A stretch of DNA of 64,000 nucleotides from Escherichia coli. Its GTDB lineage: Bacteria; Pseudomonadota; Gammaproteobacteria; Enterobacterales; Enterobacteriaceae. Positions 21,001 to 24,000 of the stretch are shown piece after piece; positions within the stretch are counted from its first letter, which is position 1, and every line of letters begins with the position of its first letter. The stretch is taken from NCBI RefSeq assembly GCF_045037415.1, contig NZ_CP173440.1; one strand, given 5' to 3'. Made by a program: the position numbers.

Positions 21001-24000
21001 CGTTGAGGATGAGCACCTGCAGCGGCCCCGCTTACCCGCCAGCGTTGAGGATGAGCACCGTCAGCAGCCCCGCTTACCCGCCAACGTTGAGGATAAGCAC
21101 CGTCAGCGCCCCCGTTTGCCCGCCAGCGTTGAGGATGAGCACCGGTAGCGGATCCGTTCACCCGCCAGCGTTGAGGATAAGCACCGTCAGCGGTCACGTT
21201 TACCCGCCAGCGTTGAGGATAAGCACCGTCAGCGGTCACGTTTACCCGCCAGCGTTGAGGATGAGCGCCGTCAGTGGATCCGTTTACCCGCCAGCGTTGA
21301 GGATAAGCACCGTCAGCGGTCACGTTTAACCGCCAGCGTTGAGGATGAGCGCCGTCAGTGGATCCGTTTACCCGCCAGCGTTGAGGATAAGCACCGTCAG
21401 CGGTCACGTTTAACCGCCAGCGTTGAGGATGAGCACCGGCAGCGGCCCTGTTTGCCCGCCAGCGTTGAGGATGAGCACCGGTAGCGGATCCGTTTACCCG
21501 CCAGCGTTGAGAATGATTCCCCTCCACCGACCCCGGTTACACGCCAGCTTTGACACTACCAGCGACTACAGTCGACATTAAAATCGCCGTGACCTGCTGC
21601 AGCGCGATATACGCCCGGCTGGCATCAAAAGAATTTTAACCAAACAGCACACATCCAGCGGTACAGGAGGCCAGGTTTAACCCGGGGCAGAAACAGATTG
21701 ATCTATAGCGACTTGTTAGGATCATTTAGCAAAAACCAATCCCGAAAGGCCTGCTTGCTATCGAAGGTGGGAAGGTTATGTATGGACAAGTTCCAGTTAA
21801 TGATTTTCACTATAAAAGACAAAAATTCAATTTCAGCCTCATTCAGTACACCCTCTCCTTTTTTCCGTATATAGAAGTCATACCATCGTTCGTAGGCGGC
21901 AACATTGATAGATTCAGATGCTTCCAGAAGCCGGGGGATATAATAAACCAGTTCTTCAAAGGCAATACTGCCTTGAGGGATATCAGAACGGCTCAGGCGA
22001 CAAAGAAGGTTAATCGTGGCTCGAAGGTGATGCCACTGCTGTGCCGGGGAGGATGGGAGGGCGTTCATGCTTATCGGAAGTTCATGAGGAATTAAAGCAA
22101 GGATCTGATTTCCACTGGTAGACAGCTCACGCCGGTACTGGTGTAGAGTATGGTGTTTAACCTTCTTCATCATAGGATGGTAGATCCATTTTTTCGCTTC
22201 CTCAGAAACGAAAAGTAACTTTTCTATCGCATCCATCATCTTTATGCCTTCTCCACTCTCACGATATGGAGCGATGATACTTTCAATCCGAACGGCATCG
22301 ATCTCCACCAGCGCCAGCTGGTCTGTTTGCGCTAACAGGTCTGGATTGGGCTGGATATCCTCCGACGTATCATTAATAAATATCCCGATTGTCGTATCGT
22401 TACATATCCCTGTGAGGTCAGCATTAAGGCCACAAACAATCCCACCACCAGCGAGATTTTTGAGGTTAACTATCCCTTTCTCCTTACCCTGCAGAAGATG
22501 AGGGAGAGCAAGGTATTTTTTTTCCTGTATTTTCACCTTTATGTATTTTTTTATATGTTGTAGTGTGAGCTCACTACAAACCCCTTTTACTTCTGTGCTG
22601 TGGCTAAAATGCCATTTTTTATTTTGACCCTGTTTGGCAATCAGGGAGGTCCCACAGATGAGGCAGATACAGTTACACGAAAGCCCATTTTCAACGCTGG
22701 CGATATCAACAATTTTATTTGAATCCGTATCAAATCCAAACGGGATCCATTTTTGTGCATTACGTCGCATGTATATTCCTCGTTAAAAATGAGTAAAGGA
22801 ATTCTACATCATCCGTTTTTATCAAACCTGGAATAACAGCGTCTAATTACATTATTCATATCTCATCGGGGATGAGATGCCACATGGAAGCAGGTATTTT
22901 GTCATAGTTTTTTTTCATGTAGATCTCAGCCCTGCGGTGATCATAAGCTCCGTTCAGGCTGGTTATCTTATTCATATCCCCACCTTCATCATTTAATTTA
23001 TCCAGGATACGCTCAAACACTCGGTCAAGGGTTTCAGTCGTACTGCACTTTCTGAACTTCAGGAGATAGGTTTCTCTCAGGCTACTGTGCGCATTTGGGC
23101 TTTTCAACAACGACGCTCCGGGGCATGTTCAAAAACACTGGCTATTTTCGAAAACAGTAAACGAAGTTCCACGCACAGGCAAGAGAAGCCATTTGATTAA
23201 TTCACGTTCTGCCTGGATTTGAAAAAAAACAATGTTACTATACTGGCTATAAAAACAGTGTGCGCCGGGGAACCGGTTAGAGATCAAGGGGTGAAAGTCC
23301 CCGACCATTGAAGGACCAGCAATCCACAAGGTCCCCGAGTCATGCGTTGCATACCGCGAGGTATGGGGCGAAGCGTTGACAGGGGTGTTGACAGGCCAGC
23401 CATTGAGCCACGAAATGTATATTAAATTACCGGGTGCCGACGTTGTACTGTTAACGGAAGGCAACATCATAGGGTGCGATACTGCGAGTGCCACATGGAC
23501 CCGGCGGGGTCTGAGACCCTGGCATGTCAATACGATCTCTACGCGGGAACCGGGAGATCTCCCCTCTGACCATCTGCCAGTGTCGGAGATGGCCCGCACC
23601 GGGAAGACGAGGAGTCATAGCCGGTGATGTACGGAGAGGAGAAGTCGGACTCGCTCATAGTAGCGGCGAAGCAGGCGAACAACCCGAAAGGAGCGGAGTC
23701 AGTGGAGCGAAGGAGCGGGGCCAAGGGGAACGCGGAACAGCCACACATGCGCCGGACACAGAGCCGGGAAAGCATGTCACAGAGGCTGTCACGCGTGCGG
23801 GAAGCTGCGAAGCAGCGGAAGAAAGAACGGTTTACAGCATTGTTCCACCTGCTGACAGTCGAAGCACTGGAAGCCGCATTCCTCTCCCTGAGCAGGAAAG
23901 CGGCCGCCGGAGTGGATGGCATCAGGTGGATGGACTACGCCGGAAACATGAAGAACAACATAACAGATCTGCACCGGAGGCTACATCAGGGCAGCTACAG

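Follow-up and report, generated by a model that had tools for sequence, protein, structure and literature searches.

Is the CoiA-like protein encoded on an enterobacterial plasmid truly a CoiA, and if not, what might it do there? The question is raised by an open reading frame (ORF) of 355 codons, hereafter ORF355, in a 64,000-nucleotide stretch of contig NZ_CP173440.1 from Escherichia coli (assembly GCF_045037415.1), the whole of which we call the window. A first-pass annotation had described ORF355 as a CoiA-like zinc-ribbon protein sitting alone, next to mobile elements, between an iteron array and an intron. We found that ORF355 is a strongly conserved gene in the backbone of the IncHI plasmids associated with resistance and virulence, that it is held under strong purifying selection, and that hha, rather than the iteron array or the intron, is its conserved neighbour. 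Judged by profile comparison, its zinc finger is homologous to CoiA_N, and ORF355 and CoiA descend from the same stock; key residues of the canonical CoiA active site are gone, and the protein is better understood as a diverged relative than as a CoiA.

A backbone gene of IncHI plasmids and its neighbours

The gene itself stands as first annotated: it runs exactly from position 21703 to 22770, opens with ATG, and encodes 355 amino acids (aa) that match RefSeq WP_032720864.1, named ‘hypothetical protein’, at 100% identity. The 1.8-kb region containing it is 100% identical to IncHI1B/IncFIB plasmids of Klebsiella pneumoniae (e.g., pKpvST147B_virulence), and a tblastn search located homologues in 2786 plasmid records, with at least 80% of the protein covered in 2502. 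The carriers are mostly conjugative MOBH/MPF_F plasmids, and the homologues reside on IncHI plasmids of Klebsiella, Escherichia, Salmonella, and Enterobacter. A Nei–Gojobori comparison with the allele of locus L017 (82% aa identity) gave a nonsynonymous rate (dN) of 0.10 and a synonymous rate (dS) of 1.55, i.e., a dN/dS of 0.066; in the per-region values, residues 201–240 are saturated at synonymous sites. The gene belongs to the backbone of IncHI1B, IncHI2, and IncHI1 plasmids alike, and these plasmids are vehicles for NDM, mcr-1, typhoid multidrug resistance, and hypervirulence loci of Klebsiella.

ORF355 lies downstream of hha on the same strand, across a spacer of 85 bp, and hha in turn diverges from a tyrosine recombinase gene. 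This arrangement, with the recombinase facing away from hha and the ORF following hha, is a deeply conserved IncHI module found across IncHI1B, IncHI2, IncHI1A, and a distant metagenomic lineage. Among IncHI1B plasmids, the window shares the module with L001 and L017, and in the latter two Tus is followed by two to four small genes, then by the tyrosine recombinase (−), and finally by hha (+) with the ORF (+) behind it. The same gene order is seen in IncHI2 plasmids (L009 and L011), where the ORF homologue is 35% identical, and in IncHI1A (L016) the recombinase/hha/ORF order is kept with an IS1-RepFIA-IS1 insert between hha and the ORF. The same three genes recur on metagenomic contig L004, at identities of 34% for the recombinase, 54% for Hha, and 28% for the ORF. 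The hha–ORF spacer is longer elsewhere, at 154 bp in contig L004 and 360 bp in IncHI2 plasmids, and the 85 bp of the window revealed neither a terminator nor a sigma-70 promoter consensus. The comparison of neighbourhoods in other plasmids, which the first-pass annotation had proposed, thus uncovered a kept gene order, and the idea of a gene sitting alone does not hold. The placement between array and intron was right in that both features are real, the former detected by Tandem Repeats Finder (TRF) and the latter by Rfam RF02005; however, ORF355 does not abut the intron, because hha lies between them. As a side observation, the IS1-flanked RepFIA (repE) segment that splits hha from the ORF355 homologue spans positions 1963–7074 of L016 (pBS90R-A_1) and is also present in L010 (pHCM1).

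Zinc finger and nuclease-type core compared with CoiA

The zinc motif of ORF355 reads C32-x-C34-x-C36-x2-C39 ... H54-x2-H57 ... C65, with each of these columns at least 90% conserved in an alignment of 92 sequences. Pfam CoiA_N (PF25164) matches residues 33–59 only, at 25.4 bits (E 9.8e-6), which is 0.9 bits under its gathering cut-off of 26.3 bits, and DUF7828 and DUF7830 give weaker matches on the same stretch. A profile search for CoiA membership, as suggested at first reading, therefore does return a match, although a partial one. All 42 relatives scanned match CoiA_N as well, the best at E 8.7e-10. Other searches with ORF355 returned little: a word-index homologue search retrieved near-identical Klebsiella proteins and no others, NCBIfam gave no match, a sequence search of the PDB gave a chance match alone (E 0.92), and PHROGs gave one weak match (13.5 bits, E 0.1). 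Literature searches turned up no work on ORF355, nor on DUF7828 and DUF7830, the neighbouring Pfam families.

HMMER, run exhaustively against 1.84 billion cluster representatives, recovered 1831 relatives at E < 1e-3. Three of these, P0012, P0018, and P0024, are full-length relatives at 25–31% identity, and many others are proteins of 270–320 aa whose common part is the first ~210 residues. Together with the seven zinc-finger positions, the columns at least 90% conserved in the 92 sequences are V26, G29, A45, G48, F55, P90, D118, W195, H198, and P199. A W-x-[YF]-H-P motif lies 165–185 residues past the zinc finger in most members, and in ORF355 the corresponding family signature, K193-x-W195-x-Y-H198-P199, closes the core. 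This wider CoiA_N/KxWxYHP family, which numbers ~1,800 representatives when clustered at 50% and stays below the threshold of Pfam DUF7828 and DUF7830, is reached by the ORF355 profile at E values that go down to 1e-15 and better, and shares with ORF355 the zinc finger, P90, D118, and W195-x-[YF]-H-P, with the Glu of strand β3 mostly gone. It differs from ORF355 in that most members are 270–320 aa long and close with a Cys4 zinc ribbon where ORF355 has a helical domain, in a β3 strand that reads YFTHPxR rather than F-I-N-D, and in its location in chromosomal islands beside defence-type genes rather than next to hha. The canonical E-x-K/E motif is kept in about a tenth of the family (e.g., P0072, P0124, and P0131). 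A large family that Pfam sees merely as a 30-residue zinc finger is thereby flagged. The finger regions of P0072 (residues 36–68) and P0035 (residues 31–70) also gave a weak PADLOC match to the N-terminus of Druantia DruB (E 0.002–0.008), and DruB may carry a related finger.

More remote family members show no linkage to hha. On Salmonella and E. coli plasmids, P0024 is preceded by a DUF6933/PDC-S63 gene, with KfrA and ParA/ParG nearby. P0045 follows a structural-maintenance-of-chromosomes (SMC) ATPase resembling LmuB, in an island with an integrase, a restriction–modification system, and HipAB. P0035 and P0072 come directly after PDC-M65A/B and a BubE-domain gene, respectively, and P0053 is near Abi_2 and a SNF2 helicase. 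On the basis of seven neighbourhoods examined, the family may be enriched in defence islands. Family members beside defence-type genes were recorded at L012 4295–7954, L015 1022–5607, L005 7294–9038, L018 1112–2481, and L022 254–6960.

A structural model of ORF355 was computed with AlphaFold2 (AF2) on the 92-sequence alignment, which replaced a 4-sequence alignment that gave a predicted local distance difference test (pLDDT) score of 37. The mean pLDDT of the final model is 82, and it exceeds 90 over residues 11–200. In the model, zinc-finger hairpins (residues 11–57) precede a helix (69–84) and strands at 86–89, 99–108, 119–123, and 126–133, with D118 opening the third of these; a short helix (143–146), a strand (152–158), helices (159–187), and a strand bearing KxWxYHP (193–197) follow. 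The resulting order, α-β-β-β-β-α-β, is compatible with the α-β-β-β-α-β core of the restriction-endonuclease-like superfamily. A low-confidence linker (211–230) then leads to a helical bundle (242–355), and this C-terminal helical domain is limited to the plasmid clade of ORF355. Foldseek comparison with viral models gave five matches at E < 1e-3 over 167–224 columns, one of them named ‘Competence protein’, followed by weaker matches that were mostly PD-(D/E)XK nucleases and restriction enzymes. Against the PDB, Foldseek found no significant match (E ≥ 0.12), with RecU, Hjc, HincII, Bax1, and MGME1 at the top of the list. RecU and Hjc, structure-specific PD-(D/E)XK resolvases, resemble ORF355 in the restriction-endonuclease-like α/β core predicted for it, but they have no zinc-finger fusion of the ORF355 type, and the catalytic triad of ORF355 is incomplete.

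The relation to CoiA emerged from profile–profile alignment. With a Bacillus-only CoiA profile, hhalign aligned the zinc finger alone (residues 13–60, probability 93%, E 3e-7). With 36 diverse CoiA sequences, residues 34–130 of ORF355 aligned with residues 28–112 of CoiA (probability 96.5%, E 9.3e-10), placing C65 on CoiA C57 and D118 on the Asp of the invariant CoiA RPD, and stopping at residue 130, one residue short of the invariant β3 Glu of CoiA. The relative P0072, found by the ORF355 profile at E 2.2e-11, keeps SE..H, RPD, and IEIEVSH and aligns with CoiA through β3 at E 3.8e-10 (hhalign); its membership in the family together with this alignment provides a transitive bridge between ORF355 and CoiA. 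Based on the diverse-CoiA alignment and this bridge, the central domain of ORF355 is predicted to be a diverged CoiA-type PD-(D/E)XK core.

The resemblance to CoiA (CoiA/YjbF of Bacillus and Streptococcus) includes the N-terminal CxxC...HxxH...C zinc finger, the core order α1, β1, β2 (Asp), β3, and a comparable size of ~350–390 aa. In contrast, ORF355 adds a C32-x-C34 pair ahead of the finger, has a C-terminal helical domain unrelated to CoiA_C, and bears the KxWxYHP signature; moreover, its gene is carried by plasmids of Enterobacteriaceae and tied to hha, whereas CoiA is a competence-regulon gene of Bacillota. Genuine CoiA proteins that we retrieved all matched PF06054 (CoiA_nuc), and nearly all matched PF25164, PF06054, and PF25166 (CoiA_C). 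CoiA_nuc did not match ORF355 at E up to 10, nor any of 52 relatives at E up to 0.01–0.1, and CoiA_C matched neither ORF355 nor any of the 52 relatives. The label ‘CoiA-like zinc-ribbon’ is therefore apt for the CoiA_N-type finger and for the homology over the first half of the core, and misleading beyond them, given the sub-threshold Pfam score, the missing CoiA_nuc and CoiA_C matches, and the lost β3 Glu. Likewise, to call CoiA proteins poorly characterised and putative nucleases no longer reflects what is known. CoiA resolves D-loops as a structure-specific endonuclease, is limited to Bacillota, and acts in natural transformation; Proteobacteria use YraN instead (bioRxiv 10.1101/2024.02.06.579203).

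Active-site residues and candidate roles

In our CoiA alignment, the α1 Glu, the β2 Asp, the β3 Glu, and a β3 Gln are invariant; the β2 Asp and β3 Glu form the catalytic signature, both CoiA activity and transformation require them, and active-site mutation impairs transformation (bioRxiv 10.1101/2024.02.06.579203). ORF355 has Leu70, Asp118, Phe131, and Asn133 at these four positions, respectively, so the canonical catalytic constellation is gone. Of the PD-(D/E)XK motif D...(D/E)xK, the first Asp alone is present in ORF355, and its β3 strand reads G-I-F-I-N-D. Canonical members have F-I-E-I-(E/K/A)-V in β3 and the IncHI clade (I/V/L)-F-(I/L)-(N/D), such that F-x-(D/N) stands in the clade where canonical members have E-x-(K/E). 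Among the 92 relatives, the β3 Glu column holds Tyr in 44, Phe in 19, and Glu in 10, and Thr or Ser predominates in the β3 Lys/Gln column, yet D118 is retained in 86.

At its plainest, ORF355 is a conserved uncharacterised protein of clinically important plasmids, about which nothing mechanistically surprising has been demonstrated. With moderate confidence, and by analogy, we favour the reading that the protein, either non-catalytic or with remodelled catalysis, binds DNA structures and contributes to the maintenance or regulation of the plasmid. ORF355 would then no longer be a canonical nuclease; its zinc finger and remodelled nuclease fold would bind DNA, probably single-stranded or branched, as suggested by the analogy with CoiA, and its helical C-terminal domain may mediate oligomerisation or contact with a partner. 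Because the 85-bp spacer lacks a terminator or promoter consensus, the gene is probably transcribed with hha or just after it, and its product would act in plasmid maintenance or regulation within a block comprising Tus, the tyrosine recombinase, hha, and ORF355. Inactive nuclease-like domains are reused for DNA binding or scaffolding in other systems, as in the nuclease-like domain of RecC and in ERCC1. The likeness lies in a nuclease fold that is kept, catalytic residues that are lost, and strong purifying selection, and it is one of analogy only. As a relative of CoiA whose active site is disabled or rewired and whose gene is locked to hha, ORF355 offers a concrete, testable handle on plasmid function.

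Several observations weigh against this reading. D118 is ~95% conserved, even in relatives without the β3 Glu, and K193 and H198 are nearly invariant, so the active site may have been relocated. The IncHI clade also retains an acidic or amide residue at positions 133/134. Furthermore, the differing spacer lengths in the window, L004, and IncHI2 mean that an hha–ORF355 operon is not assured, and the presence of distant relatives in defence islands hints at a different kind of role.

The best-surviving alternative, which we consider possible and yet clearly less probable than the favoured reading, is that ORF355 still cuts DNA as a nuclease, through a relocated and non-canonical site in which D118 acts with N133/D134, E156/D158, K193, or H198. 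Such an enzyme would cut single-stranded or branched DNA, e.g., intermediates of plasmid replication, termination, or recombination, or it might attack competing incoming DNA as a means of exclusion or defence. Migration of catalytic residues is established for PD-(D/E)XK enzymes, and D118, K193, W195, H198, and P199 reach at least 90% conservation family-wide despite the loss of the β3 Glu, with an Asp occupying the canonical Lys position in members of the IncHI clade. The company kept by distant relatives (the LmuB-like SMC ATPase, PDC-M65A/B, PDC-S63, BubE, and Abi_2 with the SNF2 helicase) is also consistent with an active enzyme. However, a defence-island location is weak evidence because such islands gather many kinds of mobile-element genes, and PADLOC-DB defence models gave no match for ORF355 itself, nor for P0024 or P0045. 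In addition, the IncHI1B allele has Asn rather than Asp at 133, the α1 Glu is lost as well (L70), and P0024 has lost even D118, reading A-P-L there.

A broader proposal, rather unlikely in our estimation, is that all IncHI plasmids pair Hha with a remodelled CoiA-like sensor of single-stranded or branched plasmid DNA, such as the entering transferred strand or replication-termination and recombination intermediates, which recruits Hha/H-NS or the recombinase, or cuts through a relocated site. Were it true, it would reveal a previously unrecognised function in plasmid establishment, maintenance, or exclusion, and the family of ~1,800 clusters would constitute a novel class of sensors of DNA structure with an enrichment in defence islands.

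More doubtful still is a specific version of the non-catalytic reading. ORF355 would then either assist the neighbouring tyrosine recombinase as a DNA-architecture accessory, helping to resolve multimers near the termination region of Tus, or serve as a partner that targets the silencing complex of Hha/H-NS. Four lineages, with ORF identity as low as 28%, keep the divergent recombinase, hha, and the ORF together, and the Tus gene lies past the recombinase, three to four genes away; P0012 and P0024, too, have a site-specific recombinase within 5 kb. On the other hand, recombinases are common throughout mobile elements, neither P0012 nor P0024 is linked to hha, and IncHI1A tolerates a 3.8-kb insertion between hha and the ORF.

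ORF355 is very unlikely to be a true orthologue of CoiA with a part in resolving the D-loops of transformation. The CoiA_N match, the homology over the first half of the nuclease core, and the name given to a truncated IncHI2 copy (see below) speak for orthology. Nevertheless, the PF06054 and PF25166 domains that characterise genuine CoiA proteins find no match, the catalytic β3 Glu is gone, and a Bacillota-restricted protein is set against a plasmid-borne one of Enterobacteriaceae; the domain and catalytic-residue tests rule out CoiA membership. Since four of five testable features fail (CoiA_nuc, catalytic residues, CoiA_C, and phyletic/regulon context), ORF355 should not carry the name CoiA, and the tempting mis-annotation as ‘competence protein CoiA’ is corrected. 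Naming by the Prokaryotic Genome Annotation Pipeline (PGAP) is itself inconsistent, with intact ORF355 homologues called ‘hypothetical protein’ and the truncated copy assigned to the CoiA family: at L011 5001–5543 (IncHI2 plasmid pESA136_1), an IS100 insertion truncates the homologue, and PGAP calls the 180-aa N-terminal fragment ‘competence protein CoiA family protein’.

The notion of a spurious or decaying ORF, prompted by a name that says no more than ‘hypothetical protein’ and by the adjoining repeat array that yields artefactual long ORFs, has a negligible probability and is ruled out by the selection and conservation data, namely the low dN/dS at a dS of ~1.5 and the full-length homologues at 25–35% identity with motifs kept, to which the confident AF2 model can be added.

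Other features of the window

The coordinates of the features discussed are collected in Table 1.

Table 1. Features of the ORF355 locus, in window coordinates.
Feature	Coordinates	Strand	Evidence and remarks
Rep3/RepB initiator gene	19376–20260	plus	Rep3_N match
Iteron array, 42 bp × 26.6 copies	20400–21516		TRF; downstream of Rep3/RepB gene
ORF355	21703–22770	minus	ORF listing; ATG start, 355 aa plus stop
Clade-specific C-terminal helical domain, residues 241–355	21706–22050	minus	Follows low-confidence linker, residues 211–230
Degenerate CoiA-type PD-(D/E)XK-like core (predicted), residues 66–200	22171–22575	minus	AF2, hhalign, P0072 bridge, column statistics, Foldseek
CoiA_N-type zinc finger, residues 32–65 (C32, C34, C36, C39, H54, H57, C65)	22576–22677	minus	Pfam PF25164, hhalign, column conservation
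Shine–Dalgarno-like GAGGAA	22776–22781	minus	Direct sequence reading; 5 nt upstream of ORF355 ATG
hha (Hha/YmoA family)	22856–23110	minus	PF05321, 52.6 bits (cut-off 25); annotated Hha/YmoA in plasmids
Group II intron	23260–25169	plus	Rfam RF02005, 186.6 bits; reverse-transcriptase ORF 23624–25111
Tyrosine recombinase	25197–26333	plus	PF00589, E 2.5e-11; divergent from hha

The RepB gene and its iterons adjoin the ORF homologue in IncHI1B alone; IncHI2 and IncHI1A have no neighbouring replicon save the IS1-borne RepFIA insert. A replicon-linked role of ORF355, such as iteron binding, was rejected because this adjacency exists in IncHI1B and not in IncHI2 or IncHI1A. The 42-bp array itself yields long ORFs at window positions 20400–21527 (304 aa on the plus strand and 358 aa on the minus strand). 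At L001 8106–9014, RefSeq annotates one such array-encoded ORF as hypothetical protein WP_164484378.1, which is probably an annotation artefact. A second, short repeat of 21 bp × 2.9 copies, at 19222–19282, closely precedes the Rep3/RepB gene, and its core GCTGGCGGGTAAAC, when reverse-complemented, matches the beginning of the 42-bp iteron unit. Because of this relationship of GCTGGCGGGTAAAC to the iteron unit, the 21-bp repeats are probably operator or iteron copies in inverted orientation.

The group II intron occupies the intergenic region between the divergent hha and tyrosine recombinase genes, with 150 bp separating it from the start of hha, upstream of which it lies. The otherwise 100%-identical plasmid NZ_CP040726 lacks it; the same insertion junction was found in 544 plasmid records, and the 5′ end of the intron matches 4718. 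A functional link between ORF355 and the intron was rejected because the intron is a polymorphic insertion, although, given its site, it might alter the expression of hha/ORF355 or of the recombinase. Elsewhere in the window, positions 6001–11000 form a block of 58–62% GC content, compared to 35–50% in the rest of the window, and this block is probably an acquired segment.

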